DNA of 64,000 bases. Origin: Oscillospiraceae bacterium (GTDB lineage Bacteria > Bacillota > Clostridia > Oscillospirales > Oscillospiraceae). Positions 26,957-46,478 of the stretch are shown here, piece by piece (the first letter of the stretch is position 1; every line of letters begins with the position of its first letter). Position numbers and translations under genes: made by a program. The notes below the pieces were generated by a model, which did no database searches, was not told the DNA's origin, and was given only the letters and a program-made list of their open reading frames with translations. The stretch is taken from assembly GCA_015068495.1 (NCBI GenBank), contig SVKL01000008.1, positions 13,892 through 77,891 of the forward strand, given 5' to 3'.

Positions 26957-26997
26957 ACACACGCAATATAATCCTGACAAGAAATTGTCGGGAATCA

Positions 26998-27083
26998 TAT
27001 CTCCGTCCATTTGCCTGAGAGATTCGGCTAACGCCTTGCACCTTCGGCACACAACTGAATGTGTTCTCCAGAGAGTCCTCCAC
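26998..27083 (-). ncRNA. Glycine riboswitch, single aptamer
   Basis: Minus strand GGACTCTCTGGAGA...GCCGAAGGTGCAA...AATCTCTCAGGCAAATGGACGGAGA carries the GGAGA, CCGAAG and CUCUCAGG core; sits in the glyA leader. Confidence 0.9.
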
Positions 27084-28215: not shown

Positions 28216-28291
28216 TGGTGGACTTGAGGAGATTCGAACTCCCGACCCCCACAATGCGAATGTGGTGCGCTCCCAACTGCGCTACAAGCCC
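28216..28291 (-). tRNA. tRNA-Ala (anticodon CGC), CCA encoded
   Basis: GGGCTTG...CAAGTCC-ACCA acceptor with G3:U70; anticodon stem CCACA-TTCGCAT-TGTGG; T loop TTCGAAT; 76 nt. Confidence 0.97.
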
Positions 28292-37533: not shown

Positions 37534-37560
37534 TTTGTATAAATTTTATGCAATCTCCGT

Positions 37561-37589
37561 TTGACAAAAAAATACTTCTGTGCTACAAT
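37561..37589 (+). promoter_or_regulatory. sigma-A promoter of the pyr operon
   Basis: TTGACA-17-TACAAT with extended -10 TG; leader is short with no attenuator visible. Confidence 0.75.
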
Positions 37590-37622
37590 TTACTGGATAA
37601 TGTAACATAGGAGGGATACGGA

Positions 37623-38837
37623 ATGATGGGCTCTGAAATGAAGGTCAAGGCTGTTGGCTTTTGTGATGGTGTCTCTGTTTCCGCTATTGCCCCGTTGATG
37701 AATGATTTGTCCGTTGATGACGTATCTGAATATGCTGTTTTTCCCGGCTTTTGTGATGTGCACGTGCATTTCCGAGAGCCGGGATTTTCTTATAAAGAGA
37801 CCATTGAAAGCGGTTCAAAGGCATCTGCGCGGGGCGGTTACACAGCGGTTTGTACAATGCCCAACTTAAACCCCGTGCCGGACAGCGTGGCACATTTGGA
37901 CGAGCAGCTGAAACTGATTGAGGAGCAGGCGGTGATTCACGTCTACCCCTACGGCGCGATTACAGTGGGTGAGAAAGGTGAGCTGCTTGCAGATTTAGAG
38001 GGTATGGCGCCCAACTGTATTGCTTTTTCCGATGACGGACGAGGTGTGCAGAGCGATGATATGATGCGGCAGGCTATGCGCCGTGCCAAGGCACTGGGCA
38101 AAATGATTGTTGCCCACTGTGAGGTAAACGAGCTGCTGAAAGGCGGCTATATCCACGATGGTCAGTACGCAGCGGCTCATAACCACAAGGGCATCTGCAG
38201 CGCCAGCGAGTACGAACAAATCGCAAGAGATTTGCGCCTAGTGAGGGAAATCGGCTGCGCCTACCACGTGTGCCACATCTCCACGAAAGAGAGTGTGGAG
38301 CTGATCCGGCAGGCGAAGGCGGAAGGCTTGGATGTGACCTGTGAAACCGGCCCTCACTATCTGACGATGGACGACAGCTTCCTGCAGGAGGACGGCAGAT
38401 TCAAAATGAATCCTCCTTTGCGGGATAAAGCTGACAGGGAAGCGCTGGTTGCCGGTATTGTGGACGGCACAATCGATATGATTGCCACTGACCACGCGCC
38501 CCACAGCGCAGAAGAAAAGAGCAAGGGCTTAGCCGGCAGCGCCTTCGGTGTGGTTGGTATTGAAACAGCCTTCCCGGTGATGTATACCCACTTGGTAAAG
38601 TCCGGCGTGATTACTCTTGAAAAGCTTATTGACCTACTGAGCAATAACCCCCGTAAACGGTTTGGTCTGCCGGCAGGAAATGATTTTACAGTGTGGAATC
38701 TGAGTAAAGAATTTACAGTAGACCCGGCGCAATTCCTGTCTATGGGTAAGGCGACGCCCTTTGCTGGCTGGAAGTTAAATGGTGAATGTTTGCTGACCGT
38801 CTGCGACGGCAAGGCAGTGTATAAATTGGAGGAATGA
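37623..38837 (+). CDS. pyrC: Dihydroorotase (type I)
   Basis: DVHVHFREPG, TMPN, FSDDG, HVCHIST, KMNPPLR, ATDHAPH. Confidence 0.94.
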   Translation: MMGSEMKVKAVGFCDGVSVSAIAPLMNDLSVDDVSEYAVFPGFCDVHVHFREPGFSYKETIESGSKASARGGYTAVCTMPNLNPVPDSVAHLDEQLKLIEEQAVIHVYPYGAITVGEKGELLADLEGMAPNCIAFSDDGRGVQSDDMMRQAMRRAKALGKMIVAHCEVNELLKGGYIHDGQYAAAHNHKGICSASEYEQIARDLRLVREIGCAYHVCHISTKESVELIRQAKAEGLDVTCETGPHYLTMDDSFLQEDGRFKMNPPLRDKADREALVAGIVDGTIDMIATDHAPHSAEEKSKGLAGSAFGVVGIETAFPVMYTHLVKSGVITLEKLIDLLSNNPRKRFGLPAGNDFTVWNLSKEFTVDPAQFLSMGKATPFAGWKLNGECLLTVCDGKAVYKLEE

Positions 38838-38840
38838 AAA

Positions 38841-41800
38841 ATGGCAAAGAGAACGGACTTAAAGAAAATTCTGATTATCGGCTCCGGTCCTATCGTAATC
38901 GGTCAGGCCGCTGAATTTGACTATGCAGGTACACAGGCTTGCTTGGCGCTGAAGGAAGAGGGCTACGAGGTTGTCCTGTGCAACTCCAACCCTGCAACCA
39001 TTATGACGGATACTACCATTGCCGACAAGGTGTATATGGAGCCTCTGACACTGGAATATGTGGCAAAGATTATCCGCTACGAGCGTCCCGATGCCATTCT
39101 GCCCGGCATCGGCGGACAGACCGGTCTGAATCTTGTTATGCAGCTGGAGAAGAAGGGCGTTTTGAAGGAATGCCGCGTGGAGCTGCTGGGTACTTCCAGT
39201 GAATCCATCGAGCGGGCTGAGGACAGAGAACTGTTCAAGGAGCTGTGCCAGTCCATCGGCGAGCCTGTCATTCCCTCCGAGATTACCTATTCTATCGAGG
39301 AAGCGAAAGCGGCGGCTAAGCGGATTGGCTATCCTGTGGTGCTTCGTCCTGCCTTTACCTTGGGCGGCACCGGTGGCGGCTTTGCATATAGTGAAGAAGA
39401 GCTGGTGGAAATCGGCTTAAACGCATTTAAGCTGTCTCCTGTGCATCAGGTGCTCATTGAGAAATCCGTCAAGGGTTATAAGGAAATCGAATTTGAGGTT
39501 ATGCGTGACGGCAACGATCACGCCATCACCATCTGCGGTATGGAAAACATTGACCCTGTAGGCGTCCATACCGGCGATAGCTTGGTGGTTGCGCCGATTA
39601 TGACTCTGAGCGACCACGATTTGAAGATGCTGAACGATTCTGCTATCAAGATCATCAAGGAATTGAAGATTGCAGGTGGCTGTAACGTGCAGTTTGCCCT
39701 GAATCCCAATAGCTCTGAATACTACCTCATTGAGGTAAATCCCAGAGTTTCCCGTTCTTCCGCTTTGGCATCCAAGGCTTCCGGCTATCCCATTGCCCGC
39801 GTAACGGCTAAAATTGCCGTGGGTATGGCGCTGGAGGACATTAAGATTGCCAACACCAACGCTGCTTTCGAGCCGAAGCTGGACTATGTCATTGCCAAGC
39901 TGCCCCGTTTCCCCTTCGATAAGTTCACCTCTGCAACCAACCTGCTGGGCACCCAGATGAAAGCCACCGGTGAGGTTATGGGTATCGGCTCCAATCTGGA
40001 AGAAGCGCTGTTAAAGGGTATCCGTTCTCTGGAAATCGGCGCAAACCACCTGTACCTGTCCAAGTTTGACAATATGAGCGTGGAGGAGCTGCTGGACTAC
40101 ATCAAGCAGTTCCGTTCCGATAACATCTTTGCTATTGCGGAACTGCTGTACCACGGTGTTTCTGTGGAGAAGATTCACGAAATTACACAAATTACACCCT
40201 ACTTCCTGGAATCCATTCGCAAGATTATCGATATGGAGGAAGTCCTTCGGGTTAAGGTAAACGACGTGGATGCCCTGAAGCAGGCAAAGGTTATGGGCTT
40301 CAGCGACAGATATGTTGCACGGCTGTGGAAGTGCGCAGAAATGGATGTTTACAAGCTGCGTAAGGCCAACAATATGTTCCCGGTATTCAAGATGGTGGAT
40401 ACCTGCCATACCGGTGCATACATTCCTTATTTCTACTCCTCCTACACCGGAGAGAACACCTCTGTTCTTACCGATAAAAAGAAAATTGTGGTGCTGGGCG
40501 CCGGTCCTATCCGTATCGGTCAGGGTGTGGAATTTGACTATTCCACCGTTCACTCTGTAATGACCATTCGGGATGCAGGCTACGAGGCCATCATCATTAA
40601 CAACAACCCCGAAACCGTTTCCACCGACTACACCACCGCTGACAAGCTGTACTTTGAGCCACTGACACCTGAGGATGTTATGAACATCATTGAGTTTGAG
40701 AATCCTGTGGGTGTGGTTGCATCCCTTGGCGGTCAAACGGCTATCAATCTTGCTCAGCCTTTGGATGACCGGGGTGTAAAGATTATCGGCACAGATTGCG
40801 CTGCCATCGACAGAGCAGAGGACAGAAATGCCTTTGAAAACCTGCTCAACGACCTGAACATTCCCCGGGCTAAGGGTCAGGCTGTTACCAAGCTGGAAGA
40901 CGGTATTGCCGCCGCAGCGGAGATCGGCTATCCTGTGCTGGTGCGTCCTTCCTTTGTGCTGGGCGGCCGGGCAATGCAGATTGTTGCCAACGAGCAGCAG
41001 CTGCGTCACTACTTGCGTACCGCGGTTGAAATTGACGAGGACAAGCCCGTCTTGGTGGATAAGTATATTGAAGGCCGTGAAGTGGAGATTGACGCCATTT
41101 GCGACGGCCGGGATGTGTTTGTTCCCGGCATTATGGAGCTGGTAGAGCGTACCGGCGTCCACTCCGGCGACTCCATTTCTGTCTATCCCACCTTCTCTAT
41201 TTCCAACAAGGTTAAGGGTATCATCCTGCAGTATGCCAAAAAGCTGGGCTTGGGCATCGGCATTGTGGGTCTGTTCAATATCCAGTTCATCGTGGATAAG
41301 GACGATAATGTGTTTATTATCGAGGTAAATCCCCGTTCCTCCCGTACCGTGCCGTTCCTGAGTAAGGCAACCGGCTATTCCTTGGCAGATATTGCCACCG
41401 AGGTTATTTTGGGCAAGAGCCTGAAGGAGCAGGGCCTGTTTGACATCTACCCCGATGAGAAGGATCGCTGGTATGCCAAAGCACCTGTGTTCTCCTTCAA
41501 TAAAATCCGCGGACTGGACGCTTATCTGTCACCTGAAATGAAGTCCACCGGCGAAGCCATCGGCTACGACAGCACGATGAACCGCGCTTTGTATAAGGCG
41601 CTGCAGGCCTCCGGTATGCACCTGCAGAATTATGGTACTGTGCTGGTTACCATTGCAGACAAGGATAAGGAAGAGGCCCTGCCTTTGATTCGCCGCTTCT
41701 ATCAGCTGGGCTTCAACATTGAAGCAACTGAGGGCACTGCGGACTTCTTGAAAGCAAACGGAATCCGTACCCACAAGCTGGGCAAGATCGGCGACGGCAG

Positions 41801-42008
41801 CGAAGAGATTCCCAATGCGCTGCGTCAGGGCCACATTGCCTACGTGATTAACACCAAAGACCCCGGCAGCAACGGCAGTGACGGTGTGCAGATCCGTCAG
41901 ATTGCCACCGAGCATAATGTTTCTCTGTTCACTGCGTTGGATACCGTAAAGGTGCTGCTGGACGTTTTGGAAGAAACTACGCTGACCATTTCTACCATTG
42001 ATGCTTGA
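38841..42008 (+). CDS. carB: Carbamoyl-phosphate synthase large subunit
   Basis: GSGPIVIGQAAEFDYAG, two ATP-grasp halves, IEVNPRVSRSS and IEVNPRSSRT, C-terminal MGS domain. Confidence 0.97.
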   Translation: MAKRTDLKKILIIGSGPIVIGQAAEFDYAGTQACLALKEEGYEVVLCNSNPATIMTDTTIADKVYMEPLTLEYVAKIIRYERPDAILPGIGGQTGLNLVMQLEKKGVLKECRVELLGTSSESIERAEDRELFKELCQSIGEPVIPSEITYSIEEAKAAAKRIGYPVVLRPAFTLGGTGGGFAYSEEELVEIGLNAFKLSPVHQVLIEKSVKGYKEIEFEVMRDGNDHAITICGMENIDPVGVHTGDSLVVAPIMTLSDHDLKMLNDSAIKIIKELKIAGGCNVQFALNPNSSEYYLIEVNPRVSRSSALASKASGYPIARVTAKIAVGMALEDIKIANTNAAFEPKLDYVIAKLPRFPFDKFTSATNLLGTQMKATGEVMGIGSNLEEALLKGIRSLEIGANHLYLSKFDNMSVEELLDYIKQFRSDNIFAIAELLYHGVSVEKIHEITQITPYFLESIRKIIDMEEVLRVKVNDVDALKQAKVMGFSDRYVARLWKCAEMDVYKLRKANNMFPVFKMVDTCHTGAYIPYFYSSYTGENTSVLTDKKKIVVLGAGPIRIGQGVEFDYSTVHSVMTIRDAGYEAIIINNNPETVSTDYTTADKLYFEPLTPEDVMNIIEFENPVGVVASLGGQTAINLAQPLDDRGVKIIGTDCAAIDRAEDRNAFENLLNDLNIPRAKGQAVTKLEDGIAAAAEIGYPVLVRPSFVLGGRAMQIVANEQQLRHYLRTAVEIDEDKPVLVDKYIEGREVEIDAICDGRDVFVPGIMELVERTGVHSGDSISVYPTFSISNKVKGIILQYAKKLGLGIGIVGLFNIQFIVDKDDNVFIIEVNPRSSRTVPFLSKATGYSLADIATEVILGKSLKEQGLFDIYPDEKDRWYAKAPVFSFNKIRGLDAYLSPEMKSTGEAIGYDSTMNRALYKALQASGMHLQNYGTVLVTIADKDKEEALPLIRRFYQLGFNIEATEGTADFLKANGIRTHKLGKIGDGSEEIPNALRQGHIAYVINTKDPGSNGSDGVQIRQIATEHNVSLFTALDTVKVLLDVLEETTLTISTIDA

Positions 42009-42016
42009 TTTAATGT

Positions 42017-42042
42017 TGTAGCGCGGGGGCTTGCCCCCGCCG
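42017..42042 (+). repeat. GTAG-type REP-like palindrome
   Basis: TGTAG-CGCGGGGGC-TT-GCCCCCGCCG in the carB-pyrK gap. Confidence 0.55.
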
Positions 42043-42070
42043 AACAATACTATGTCAAACGGAGGAAACA

Positions 42071-42808
42071 ATGAAACAATCGAGTTTTACTGTTGTCAGC
42101 AATACCTCTCTGACTGACAATGTTTATAAAATGGTTCTGCAGGGCGACGTATCGGCTATTACTGCGCCGGGCCAGTTTGTCAACCTCAAGCTGGAGGGCC
42201 TGTATCTGCGCCGTCCCATCTCCGTGTGTGATTTGGATGGGGACAAGCTGACCATTGTTTATAAGGCGGTAGGTAAGGGAACAGAGCAGATGTCCCGTAT
42301 GACAGCAGGGGAGAAGCTGGATATTCTCACCGGCTTGGGCAACGGCTATGACCTGAGCCTGTCCGGCGAGAAGCCTGTGCTGCTGGGTGGCGGCGTAGGC
42401 GTGCCTCCTATGTATCTGCTTGCCAAAGAATTGCTGAAACAGGGCAAAAAAGTTTCTGTTATCTTGGGATTCAACACAAAATCCGAGATTTTCTACGAAG
42501 AAGAATTTGAAAAGCTTGGCTGCAATGTAACCGTTACAACCGTGGACGGTAGCTTTGGCACAAAAGGCTTTGTCACCACTGCATTGGAAGGGGTGGACTA
42601 TTCCTACTTCTATACCTGCGGTCCTGAGCCAATGCTGAAGGCTGTATATAAGGCATCCAATACTTCTGGGCAGATGAGCTTTGAAAAGAGGATGGGGTGT
42701 GGCTTTGGCGCATGTATGGGCTGCTCCTGCAAGACCCTCACCGGCTACAAGCGTATCTGCAAGGAAGGCCCTGTGATGAAAAAGGAGGAAATTCTATGGG
42801 AAGATTAA
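42071..42808 (+). CDS. pyrK: Dihydroorotate dehydrogenase electron transfer subunit
   Basis: PGQFV, RRPIS, GGGVG, CGPEPM, MGCGFGACMGC 2Fe-2S motif. Confidence 0.94.
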   Translation: MKQSSFTVVSNTSLTDNVYKMVLQGDVSAITAPGQFVNLKLEGLYLRRPISVCDLDGDKLTIVYKAVGKGTEQMSRMTAGEKLDILTGLGNGYDLSLSGEKPVLLGGGVGVPPMYLLAKELLKQGKKVSVILGFNTKSEIFYEEEFEKLGCNVTVTTVDGSFGTKGFVTTALEGVDYSYFYTCGPEPMLKAVYKASNTSGQMSFEKRMGCGFGACMGCSCKTLTGYKRICKEGPVMKKEEILWED

Positions 42809-43707
42809 GTGTTGACCTGTGTGGAATTACCCTTGATAATCCTGTAATTCCTGCCTCCGGCACCTTCGGCTACGGCTATGAGTATGCTGAAATTTATGAT
42901 ATCAACTGCCTTGGCACGTTCTCTTTTAAGGGCACAACCAAGGAGCCCCGTTTCGGCAACCCTACGCCCCGGATCGCTGAATGTACCGCCGGTATGATCA
43001 ATGCCGTTGGCTTGCAGAATCCCGGTGTGGAAAAGGTTATTGCCGAGGAACTACCGAAGCTGAAAAAATGCTTCCACAAGCCTGTTATGGCAAATATCAG
43101 CGGTTTTGGGGTAGAGGAGTATGCCTACACCTGCGAAAAGCTGGATAAGGAGGCGCAAGTCGGCTGGCTGGAAGTGAACGTCAGCTGTCCCAATGTCCAC
43201 GGCGGCGGTATGAGCTTCGGTACTGACCCGAAAGCAGCCGCTGAGGTGACGAAGGCAGTAAAGAAGGTCACCACCAAGCCGGTGATTGTAAAGCTGTCCC
43301 CCAACGTGACGGACATCGTTTCTATTGCAAAAGCCTGTGAAGATGCCGGCGCTGACGGTATCAGCCTGATTAACACAATGCTGGGTATGCGCATTGACCT
43401 GAAAACCCGCAAGCCGGTAATTGCCAACAAGATGGGCGGCTTCTCCGGCGCAGCAATTTTCCCTGTGGCGGTGCGTATGGTCTATCAGGTCGCCAATGCC
43501 GTCAAGATTCCCGTGGTGGGTATGGGCGGCGTAAGCAGTGCTGAGGACGTGATTGAGATGATGCTGGCTGGCGCAACTGCCGTTGAGGTGGGCGCAGCAA
43601 ACCTTGTGAACCCCTGCATTTGTCGGGATATTATCGAAGAACTTCCCGCAGTTATGGATAAATACAGAATCAATACATTAAGTGAAATTATCGGAGGTGC
43701 GAAATAA
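42796..43707 (+). CDS. pyrD: Dihydroorotate dehydrogenase B catalytic subunit
   Basis: [36 protein letters not shown]; ATG 42796 after AGGAGG. Confidence 0.95.
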
Positions 43708-44405
43708 TGGGTAAGGACGTGATTGTAGCCTGTGATTTTGCCAGCGCAGAGCAGACCTTTGCGTTTTTGGACAAGTTCACCGGCCGGAAGCCTTTCGTGA
43801 AAATCGGCATGGAGCTGTACTACGCAGAAGGCCCTGCCATCGTCAAGGAAATCAAGGCAAGAGGTCATAAGATTTTCTTGGATTTGAAGCTCCACGACAT
43901 TCCCAACACTGTCAAAAAGGCAATGGCAGTTTTGCGGAATCTGGATGTGGATATCACAAACCTGCACGCCGCCGGCACCAAGAATATGATGCGCGCCGCC
44001 TTGGAGGGCTTGACCCGTGAGGACGGCACCCGTCCGCTGCTGATTGCTGTGACCCAGCTGACCTCCACCGATCAGGAGAGTATGGAAAAGGACCTGCTCA
44101 TTGAAAAGCCTATTGATCAGGTGGTTATGCACTACGCCAAATGCGCCGAAGAGGCAGGTCTCGACGGCATCGTATGCTCACCGCTGGAGGCAGGCAAGGT
44201 CCACGATACCTGCGGCAAGAGCTTTTTGACTGTTACCCCCGGTGTCCGCTTTGCTGACGGCGATGTGGGTGACCAGAAGCGGGTTATGACCCCTGCGCAG
44301 GCTAAGGAAATCGGCTCCGACTATATTGTTGTGGGCCGTCCGATTACTGCTGCCGCCGACCCCGTGGCCGCCTACGAGCGCTGCATTGATGAATTCTGCG
44401 ACTAA
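43707..44405 (+). CDS. pyrF: Orotidine-5-phosphate decarboxylase
   Basis: [34 protein letters not shown]. Confidence 0.96.
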
Positions 44406-44408
44406 AAT

Positions 44409-44487
44409 TGTAGGGACCGGCGTCCTCGACGGTCCTATTGCAGAAGTCCGCTTTGCTGACGGACTGTCCGGGAGGCCAGTCCCTACA
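44409..44487. repeat. Inverted doublet of GTAG-type REP units (REPIN/BIME-like)
   Basis: TGTAGGGACCGGCGTCCTCGACGGTCC (44409-44435) and the reverse complement of TGTAGGGACTGGCCTCCCGGACAGTCC (44461-44487). Confidence 0.75.
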
Positions 44488-44512
44488 CATTTATCTTCAA
44501 AGGAGAACCATT

Positions 44513-45166
44513 ATGGAAGCCTATAAAAGAGAATTCATTGAATTCCTGCAGGATGCAGGTGTGTTGAAATTTGGCGATTTTACAGCCAAATCCGGCCGTA
44601 AAATTCCTTATTTTGTCAATGCCGGTATGATTAAGACCGGTGACCAAATTACCAAAATGGGCGAGTTCTACGCCAAGGCTTATTTTGACAAGCTGGGTAA
44701 AAAGCAGGCTGTCCTGTACGGACCTGCCTATAAGGGTATTTCTCTGTCCATTTCTGCCGCTGTGGCGCTGTCCCGTAACGGTCTGAATGTTCCTTTCTTC
44801 TTTAACCGTAAGGAAGTGAAAGACCACGGTGAAGGCGGTACATTCGTAGGCTACGTTCCTCAGGCCGGCGAAGAAATCGTCATAATTGAAGACGTAATTA
44901 CAGCCGGCACTGCTATCCGTGAGTCTATGGAAATCCTCAGCCACTTGGATGGCACGAAAGTTATTGCCACCTTCATTATGGTTGACCGGAAAGAGAAGGG
45001 TCAGACCGAGAAGGGTGCTATGCAGGAGATTGAAGAGCAGTTCGGCTTCCCTGTGTACTCTGTTGTGGACGTTTATGACATTATCGAGTATTTGGAGGAA
45101 GACCCTGCCAACGAAGAAAACGTTACCCGTATTAAGAACTATCTGGCTGTGAATGGAGCGAAATAA
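44513..45166 (+). CDS. pyrE: Orotate phosphoribosyltransferase
   Basis: [40 protein letters not shown]; ATG 44513 after AAGGAG. Confidence 0.95.
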
Positions 45167-46254
45167 TGAGAAGCTTGATTGACATTGTAGATTTTTCCGT
45201 TGAGGAAATTCAGCAGCTGCTGGAGACTGCCTGCGACATCAGCGAAAATCCTGCAAAGTATGCAGAACGCTGCCGTGGCAAGAAGCTGGCAACGCTGTTC
45301 TATGAGCCTTCCACCCGTACCCGCCTTAGCTTTGAAGCGGCTATGTATGAGTTGGGCGGTAACGTGCTGGGCTTTAGCGAGGCGGCATCTTCTTCTGCCG
45401 CAAAGGGAGAGAGCATGGCAGACACTGCAAAAATGCTCTCCTGCTATGCGGATATTATGGCAATCCGTCATCCCAAGGAGGGTGCGCCTTTCGTAGCTGC
45501 AACCAATGCCACCATTCCCGTTATCAATGCCGGTGATGGCGGCCATTGCCACCCCACACAGACCTTGGCTGACCTGCTGACCGTTTATCGGGAAAACGGA
45601 AGACTCCACGATTTGACCATCGGCTGCTGTGGTGATTTGAAATATGGCAGAACGGTGCACTCCTTGATATCTGCTTTTTCACGGTACGACAATATCAAGT
45701 TTGTCCTGATTTCTCCCGAAGAGCTGAAGCTACCCAAGTACGTAAAGTATGAGGTGCTGGATAAAAACGGTATGCAGTATGTGGAAACAACCTCTTTGGA
45801 GGAGGCAATGCCGCAGCTGGATGTTTTGTATATGACCCGTATCCAACGGGAGCGCTTTGACAGCTTTGACGAGTATGAGCGTTTGAAGGACAGCTATATT
45901 CTGACACCTGAGAAGATGGCAGCGGCTAAGCCCACTATGCGCGTGCTGCACCCCCTTCCCAGAGTGAATGAAATCAGCGTAAAGGTGGATGAAGATCCCC
46001 GGGCAGCCTATTTCCGCCAGGCGCTGAACGGCAAGTATATGCGTATGGCGCTGATTCTCAAGCTGCTCAAAGAGGCTGAGGAAGGCAAGCAGATGGAGCC
46101 GGTGAATGCTGTGGAGAACAGTGCTCTTATCTGTGATAACCCCCGCTGTATTTCCTCTACCGAGCAGGAGCTTCCCCACAGATTTAAGCTGGTGGATGCA
46201 GAACGTGGCATTTACCGGTGCATCTATTGCGAGGGTAAAAAAACCTTGGGTTGA
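45166..46254 (+). CDS. pyrB: Aspartate carbamoyltransferase with a fused C-terminal PyrI-type zinc domain
   Basis: [29 protein letters not shown]; extension CDNPRC...RCIYCE. Confidence 0.94.
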
Positions 46255-46352: not shown

Positions 46353-46369
46353 GTTTACAGTGATGAATA

Positions 46370-46443
46370 TCGTTCTTTGCGACTGACGGAAATGTGGAGC
46401 ACCACAAGGGACCAAAGAATGTAAAAGCCGACCGTCTGGGCGC
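46370..46443 (+). ncRNA. ZMP/ZTP (pfl) riboswitch
   Basis: P1 TTCTTTG/CAAAGAA, GCGACTGACGGA junction, P2 GTGG/CCAC, P3 GCCGACCGTCTGGGC whose loop can pseudoknot with GACGG; upstream of purE. Confidence 0.92.
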
Positions 46444-46478
46444 ATTTGACAGTAACCTTAGTCAAGTGCGCCCTTTTT
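46438..46478 (+). terminator. Expression-platform terminator of the ZTP riboswitch
   Basis: GGGCGCATTTGAC / GTCAAGTGCGCCC + TTTTT; the 5-prime arm overlaps P3. Confidence 0.85.

Follow-up and report, generated by a model that had tools for sequence, protein, structure and literature searches.

Our analysis showed that the pyrimidine gene string of this Oscillospiraceae bacterium ends in a gene, here called pyrB-Zn, whose product joins the catalytic chain of aspartate carbamoyltransferase (ATCase) to only the zinc domain of the regulatory chain PyrI. The allosteric domain of PyrI is absent from both the protein and the genome. The combination of a catalytic chain with the PyrI_C zinc domain alone was confirmed as a distinct and real ATCase architecture; pyrB-Zn is a real, conserved variant of a known enzyme system, and apparently an unstudied one. 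We favor, with a probability of about 0.55, the reading that the product would be an active ATCase whose tethered zinc-bound domain is docked as a structural and kinetic module, and which has lost control of the PyrI type.

The gene lies in a window of 64,000 nucleotides (the whole stretch of DNA that was analysed), taken from an assembly of 1.77 Mb in 40 contigs that is 92.9% complete. Among named relatives, the closest are Faecousia sp. and further metagenome-assembled genomes (MAGs) of Oscillospiraceae from human and ruminant guts. The features discussed below are collected in Table 1. The gene is a single uninterrupted frame, and its ATG shares one base with the stop codon of pyrE.

Table 1. 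Positions of pyrB-Zn, its parts and the neighbouring features in the window
Feature	Position (nt)	Strand	Basis or remark
pyrC	37623-38837	+	Pfam, ORF map
carB	38841-42008	+	1055 aa; Pfam, ORF map
pyrK	42071-42808	+	Pfam, ORF map
pyrD	ends 43707	+	Pfam, ORF map
pyrF	43707-44405	+	Pfam, ORF map
pyrE	ends 45166	+	Pfam, ORF map
Genes upstream of pyrB-Zn in one string	37623-45166	+	pyrC-carB-pyrK-pyrD-pyrF-pyrE
pyrB-Zn gene, PyrB + PyrI-type zinc domain	45166-46254	+	362 aa plus stop
Catalytic part, residues 1-302	45166-46071	+	Pfam, TIGR00670, PDB 1ml4 alignment
Linker, residues 303-322	46072-46131	+	sequence and length variable
Zinc-domain core, residues 323-358	46132-46239	+	PF02748, spacing, conservation, dN/dS, AF2 pLDDT
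Codons of C323, C328, C352, C355	46132-46134, 46147-46149, 46219-46221, 46228-46230	+	
ZMP/ZTP riboswitch	46369-46448	+	Rfam RF01750, 60.8 bits vs gathering score 39

Three Pfam domains were found in the one 362-residue frame: OTCace_N at residues 2-141 (163 bits), OTCace at residues 149-298 (106 bits) and PyrI_C (PF02748) at residues 321-357 (44.2 bits, the gathering score being 23.4; E 1.7e-11). The catalytic part consists of a carbamoyl-phosphate domain and an aspartate domain with a C-terminal helix at 282-305. The protein scored above the NCBIfam cut-offs of the ATCase equivalog TIGR00670 (353 bits against 237) and of NF002032 (319.5 bits against 263). The match to the PyrI equivalog NF002063 was limited to residues 315-358, which correspond to model positions 95-137 of 142 and hence to the final third of a regulatory chain. 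These results bear out the earlier note on this DNA, which had read the gene as PyrB fused to the zinc domain only, with neither a PyrI allosteric domain nor a separate pyrI, and had named a domain search for PyrI_C without PyrI as the check. The allosteric domain, PF01948, gave no match at E≤1 in the genome, and a control search found it in seven reference genomes; pyrB-Zn was the sole PF02748 match in its own genome. The position given there for the cysteine motif, 46132-46230, was right, but its spacing, written as C-x4-C-x24-C-x2-C, is actually C-x4-C-x23-C-x2-C. This is identical to the spacing of C109/C114/C138/C141 in E. coli PyrI (MG1655 record).

The best PDB sequence match was the P. 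abyssi chain 1ml4 (residues 2-300, 315 bits), followed by 2be7, 2rgw and the E. coli chain. The equivalents of E. coli S52, T53, R54, T55, S80, K84 and R105, and of H134, Q137, R167, R229, Q231, P266 and L267, are present in the query and invariant in the three clades A, B and C described below. As the catalytic residues are all present, the gene product is predicted to be an active ATCase, which forms part of the favored reading and shares its probability. The 53-residue tail alone gave no match at E≤0.01 in a phmmer search against the PDB sequences, and the zinc domain was recognised by profiles only (Pfam, NCBIfam). A second OTCace_N match in the genome, 29% identical, is presumably an OTCase; pyrB-Zn is the only ATCase-like gene there. 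The database name of such proteins is plain 'aspartate carbamoyltransferase' (P0084).

The fused form is widely conserved. All of the best 120 database matches, which are 83-100% identical, carried the three Pfam domains. At least 578 stretches among the contigs of a one-genome-per-species set encode a relative, and the 80 of these that we inspected (66-90% identical) all span residues 1-356 or more. In these 80, the residues C323, C328, C352, C355, N325, E333-Q334-E335, R351, Y354 and E356 vary little or not at all. The four cysteines are invariant in 85 close homologues, and together with N325 they are also invariant in 47 fused homologues with identity down to 38%. This conservation is far beyond chance, and from the invariance of the four cysteines we propose that they bind zinc. 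An artefact, in the form of a frameshifted or misjoined pyrB-pyrI pair or of an error in assembly or gene calling, was ruled out: the gene is one frame, the identical protein (100%, cluster P0001) occurs on 24 contigs, and the 80 relatives come from independent MAGs and are full-span.

Between the two conserved parts, the top-residue frequency drops to 0.41 in the linker against 0.83 in the catalytic part, and residues 302-322 differ among relatives in both sequence and length. The distance from the catalytic end to the first cysteine is nevertheless 14-26 residues in all fused lineages. Pairwise dN/dS (NG86) was similarly low in the catalytic part (0.04) and the zinc domain (0.05) and higher in the linker (0.16), these values being approximate as the pairwise dS of about 1.3 is near saturation. 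It is very improbable that the tail is a functionless remnant whose decay is still to come. One genus of the other fused clade (g8) did lose the tail and keep the gene, as such a view would have it, but the zinc domain holds its low dN/dS over pairs at that dS, the four cysteines are invariant in both the close and the more distant homologues, and the architecture has been kept independently in at least two clades.

pyrB-Zn is the last gene of the string pyrC-carB-pyrK-pyrD-pyrF-pyrE-pyrB(Zn). The ZMP/ZTP riboswitch between it and purE heads purE-purC-purF and marks the end of the pyr unit; a GC-rich hairpin with a T-run follows the riboswitch, just 5′ of the purE ribosome-binding site. A PyrR attenuator as an alternative means of control was ruled out, since the PyrR-binding RNA (RF00515, Rfam) has no match in the genome or in the window. 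The region upstream of pyrC (37534-37622, + strand) holds a promoter-like pair, TTGACA ... TACAAT, and no recognisable attenuator or riboswitch was seen in it. CarB has an MGS-like domain at residues 946-1031 (Pfam). The string contains carB without carA, and the CPSase small-chain domain PF00988, present in 105 of 151 genomes of the family, was found neither in this genome (G000) nor in the second genome sampled from its genus; the carbamoyl-phosphate synthetase here is possibly ammonia-dependent. A link between the fusion and the loss of carA was ruled out, as a same-genus genome with split pyrBI lacks carA and a fused genome (G110) has it. Elsewhere in the window we noted a glycine riboswitch aptamer at 26993-27081 on the - strand (55.6 bits, Rfam) and a tRNA gene at 28219-28291, also on the - strand.

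We scanned 151 Oscillospiraceae genomes with the protein and with PF02748, and three types were distinguished; the counts per group were read from the match tables of this sample and are approximate. Type A, fused and 66-69% identical to the query, was present in about 6 genomes including the source genome. Type B, with split pyrB and pyrI, a PyrB that ends at about query residue 302 and an identity of 61-74%, was present in about 60-61 of the 151, including the other sampled genome of the query's genus. Type C, fused and 47-54% identical, was present in about 52 genomes. Two genomes had an unfused type-C-like gene, and 28 had no match.

The catalytic domain of the query is closer to the split enzymes of type B than to the fused type C. 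Types A and B form one clade in maximum-likelihood trees of the catalytic domains only, with an SH-aLRT of 96 in the 94-row tree and 100 in the 55-row tree. The trees were built with a 'quick' search. The architecture groups were tested after the first tree had been viewed, but it was domain content, not the tree, that defined them. The zinc domain shows the same affinity: its mean identity to the zinc domains of type-B PyrI is 56%, whereas the means for type C and for the remaining fused forms are 34% and 32%. Types A and B also have the locus pyrD-pyrF-pyrE-pyrB(-pyrI)-purE in common, from which type C differs. As the catalytic chains and the zinc domains nearest to the query are both of type B and the locus is shared, the fusion arose by in-frame deletion.

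The simplest account is an in-frame deletion of about 83 codons in an ordinary pyrB-pyrI pair. From the pyrB start to the first cysteine there are about 405 codons in type B against 322 in the query. Type-B PyrB stops 2-5 residues past the LKLL of the last helix, where type A reads through. Type-B PyrI carries PF01948 at residues 1-89 and PF02748 at 95-139, and query residues 306-358 align with it from about K94 to its end. The deleted stretch would thus have comprised the pyrB stop codon and roughly PyrI residues 1-85. The linker of about 20 residues proposed earlier holds in so far as residues 303-322 are variable; about 17 of them, however, are not new linker but the initial segment of the PyrI zinc domain in degenerated form, with query residues of about 306-322 corresponding to PyrI residues of about 94-108. 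In split PyrI this segment before the first cysteine is conserved (K94 0.92, L99 0.84, P100 1.0, V106 0.76), and in type A, where it became the linker, conservation is down to 0.19-0.4. Over C109-K144 (E. coli numbering), fused and split forms conserve most of the strongly conserved positions to the same degree (N111, P112, I115, E119, F125, R137, Y140 and E142), whereas type A has relaxed conservation at L127, R130 and Y136. The variability of the catalytic part is equal in the two types (mean entropy 0.71 in each).

Free trees scatter three fused rows among the split ones, as several independent deletions within the Faecousia-type clade would do. This possibility was set aside: the tree in which type A is held together has an AU p of 0.63 and a slightly better score than the free tree. 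Since the type-A-together tree is not rejected, one deletion event suffices for type A.

A different result was obtained for the zinc-fused ATCases taken as a whole. In the 94-row tree, type C forms its own clade (SH-aLRT 96) with three other zinc-fused representatives clustering beside it, and most of the other zinc-fused representatives fall in a third clade (97), which includes full PyrBI and unfused forms as well. That all zinc-fused ATCases share a single origin was rejected by the AU test, in which all fused rows were held in one clade (delta lnL 176, AU p 6e-80). This indicates that fused forms arose at least twice, once in type A and once in type C with the rest, and that the fused clade of type C in the Oscillospiraceae is independent of type A. 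Clade C and the tailed fusions described next have the domain order of the query and the same gap before the first cysteine, and in clade C and the other fusions the four cysteines and the Asn after the first of them are invariant, as in the query. Clade C differs from the query in its identity of only 47-54%, its shorter zinc loop (x20) and its other gene neighbourhood.

Several variants were seen among these relatives. Two PyrB genes inside clade C (SH-aLRT 96), L130 (genome G140, 1988-2896) and L131 (genome G007, 1976-2863), end after the last helix, and no zinc motif was found downstream of either in any frame. As they are nested in clade C and are followed by no zinc motif, the tail was lost secondarily in this genus, g8. 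Other proteins extend beyond the zinc domain. P0202 and P0233 have 653-658 residues, and a PRTase (PyrR-like) domain was seen behind the zinc domain in P0202; P0194, P0196, P0221, P0240 and P0262 have 454-490 residues with a tail of about 59-80 residues beyond the zinc domain; and P0156 (544 residues) has a 190-residue tail with a weak Cdc6_C-like match. Some genomes of the family have two ATCase-like genes (G130, on C294 and C292; G094; G030; G134). The two genes of G130 are one type-B-like and one type-C-like; this genome may be a mixed bin, as it is 68% complete with 3% contamination. In the closed genome G094 the second copy is 39% identical (C1:3691203-3692105).

An AF2 monomer model built from a 47-sequence alignment had a mean pLDDT of 93.2 and a pTM of 0.92. 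It places the last helix at 282-305, followed by a block at 311-320 with a pLDDT of 83 and by the zinc domain with three short strands and a pLDDT of 89-91. The high pTM suggests that in the model the tail is packed against the catalytic body and not floating. A Foldseek search of the model against the PDB returned catalytic chains only, over about 300 columns and with identities of 45-52%, and none of the PDB sequence and fold matches was a solved chain spanning the fusion.

The clearest differences between types A and B are at E. coli positions 165, 230 and 236-241, the last being the 240s loop. Position 165 is Y in type A (0.98) and F in type B. Position 237 is E in 96% of the split forms and is unconstrained in the fused clade (0.96 to 0.32). 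In the T state of the E. coli enzyme, contacts between trimers and between catalytic and regulatory chains are made by K164/Y165 and the 240s loop. The rows compared are related, and these differences are a weak hint of an altered quaternary arrangement after the fusion; they could mean a changed quaternary structure in place of a simple trimer. In the E. coli T state, regulatory chain r1 contacts catalytic chain c4, and on this model the fused protein might form a minimal cooperative hexamer in which the zinc domain also contacts the 240s-loop region in a second trimer and so would keep two trimers joined, with homotropic cooperativity and no heterotropic control by nucleotides. The fused clade has conserved equivalents of K164, Y165, E239 and Y240, and E356 and K358 after the last cysteine are conserved too; the spacing of 14-26 residues between catalytic end and cysteine suggests a geometric constraint. 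We nevertheless consider such a hexamer unlikely, because class B joins its trimers through an r-r dimer contact within the domain that was deleted, conservation has been lost at position 237 of the 240s loop, and the AF2 model is compact already as a monomer.

The deletion took the whole nucleotide-binding and dimerising domain of PyrI and left its zinc domain, which a short, freely evolving linker now ties to the C-terminal helix of the catalytic chain. On the favored reading, the four cysteines would bind zinc and the domain would dock on a catalytic chain at the carbamoyl-phosphate domain, like the zinc domain of the regulatory chain in the E. coli holoenzyme, serving there as an integral module with a structural and kinetic role. 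The enzyme would then be a (c-Zn)3 trimer without ATP/CTP control of the PyrI type: with the nucleotide-binding and dimerising domain gone, this control and the r2 bridges would be lost together. Control of the pathway would be exerted elsewhere, for example on CarB with its allosteric MGS-like domain. Isolated E. coli c3 keeps its stability and activity when regulatory chains are absent, so the catalytic chain need not depend on the zinc domain, and the loss of the tail in genus g8 of clade C counts against strict dependence. Nucleotides could also act at another site of the fused enzyme; in plant ATCase, UMP is described as acting at the active site (PMC7878868).

The zinc domain might alternatively serve as an adaptor that recruits another protein, be it a new regulator or, as the earlier note had suggested, PyrC or CarB. 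The genes pyrC and carB do belong to the same string as pyrB-Zn, and the PRTase domain and the tails of about 70 residues behind the zinc domain elsewhere show that this domain can be connected to sensors. We regard this as improbable: nothing was found that points to docking of PyrC or CarB, no candidate partner gene accompanies the fusion, the neighbours of types A and B being alike apart from the deletion, the genome holds no stand-alone PyrI N-domain, and the conservation of residues in the zinc domain equals that of a PyrI that binds PyrB.

A broader possibility, which we put forward tentatively, is that the docking domain has become entrenched, so that chains of class B have repeatedly shed the sensor and kept the fused zinc domain for folding, stability or inter-trimer cooperativity. 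The sensor would have been shed at least twice in one family and again in other lineages. In its strongest version, this possibility would include a cooperative hexamer held by tethered zinc domains alone.

ATCase is a textbook model of allostery, and the layout described here is common in gut Clostridia, being found in about 58 of the 151 sampled Oscillospiraceae genomes. It suggests that abundant gut anaerobes do without nucleotide-sensor control of the PyrI type over pyrimidine synthesis at ATCase. Nature provides a control, as sister species have split pyrB-pyrI, about 70% identical, at the same locus. Such a fused and split pair could separate the effect of the zinc domain on the catalytic chain from nucleotide signalling, and it would test whether a docking domain can outlive its former regulatory function. 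The split sister group, the origin by deletion and the evidence for independent origins are new.

A review of transcarbamylases from 2015 lists three quaternary types of prokaryotic ATCase: the trimer by itself, the enzyme with dihydroorotase, and the enzyme with regulatory chains, which are separate proteins or, in Thermotoga, fused (PMC4581275). PyrB with only the zinc domain is none of these three types, which agrees with the earlier suggestion of a distinct architecture. No paper on this layout was found in full-text searches of a literature library, an absence that is not proof.

The catalytic chain of the query is of the same type as that of the class B holoenzyme PyrB6-PyrI6 (E. coli; the archaeal P. 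abyssi 1ml4 and M. jannaschii 2rgw), its zinc domain shares the four cysteines and their spacing with E. coli PyrI, and the query descends from a split pair in the same family. In contrast to class B, neither the protein nor the genome contains PF01948, the zinc domain is covalently fused, and the class B assembly of two c3 and three r2 cannot form in the same way. Class B is defined by a regulatory chain with PF01948, and the query has none.

The Thermotoga maritima-type PyrBI (NF009916, about 525 residues) likewise has the catalytic and regulatory parts on one chain and in the same order, and has been described as allosteric (Chen et al. 1998, cited in PMC4581275). It keeps the allosteric domain, as had been stated for such fusions beforehand, whereas the query is without it. 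The query scored 136 bits against the NF009916 cut-off of 800, over model positions 8-330, which are the catalytic part only. The full PyrBI representatives P0211, P0218 and P0270 carry PF01948 and lie elsewhere in the catalytic tree.

The unregulated trimer of class C (Bacillus subtilis type) probably represents the same outcome, a trimer insensitive to nucleotides. Its chains are distant from the query (148 bits for 3r7d and 147 for 2at2, against 279-315 for class B chains) and are without a zinc domain, which the query has, so that the query does not belong to class C either.

The nearest functional analogue is an in vitro complex. The isolated zinc domain of E. coli PyrI, 70 residues long, reportedly binds tightly to the catalytic trimer and alters its kinetics. 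This complex of c3 with the zinc domain has the same composition as the fused protein and no allosteric domains, but it is a laboratory construct of separate chains, whereas the query is natural, covalent and evolutionarily maintained. By analogy with it, altered kinetics without nucleotide control would be expected for the query.
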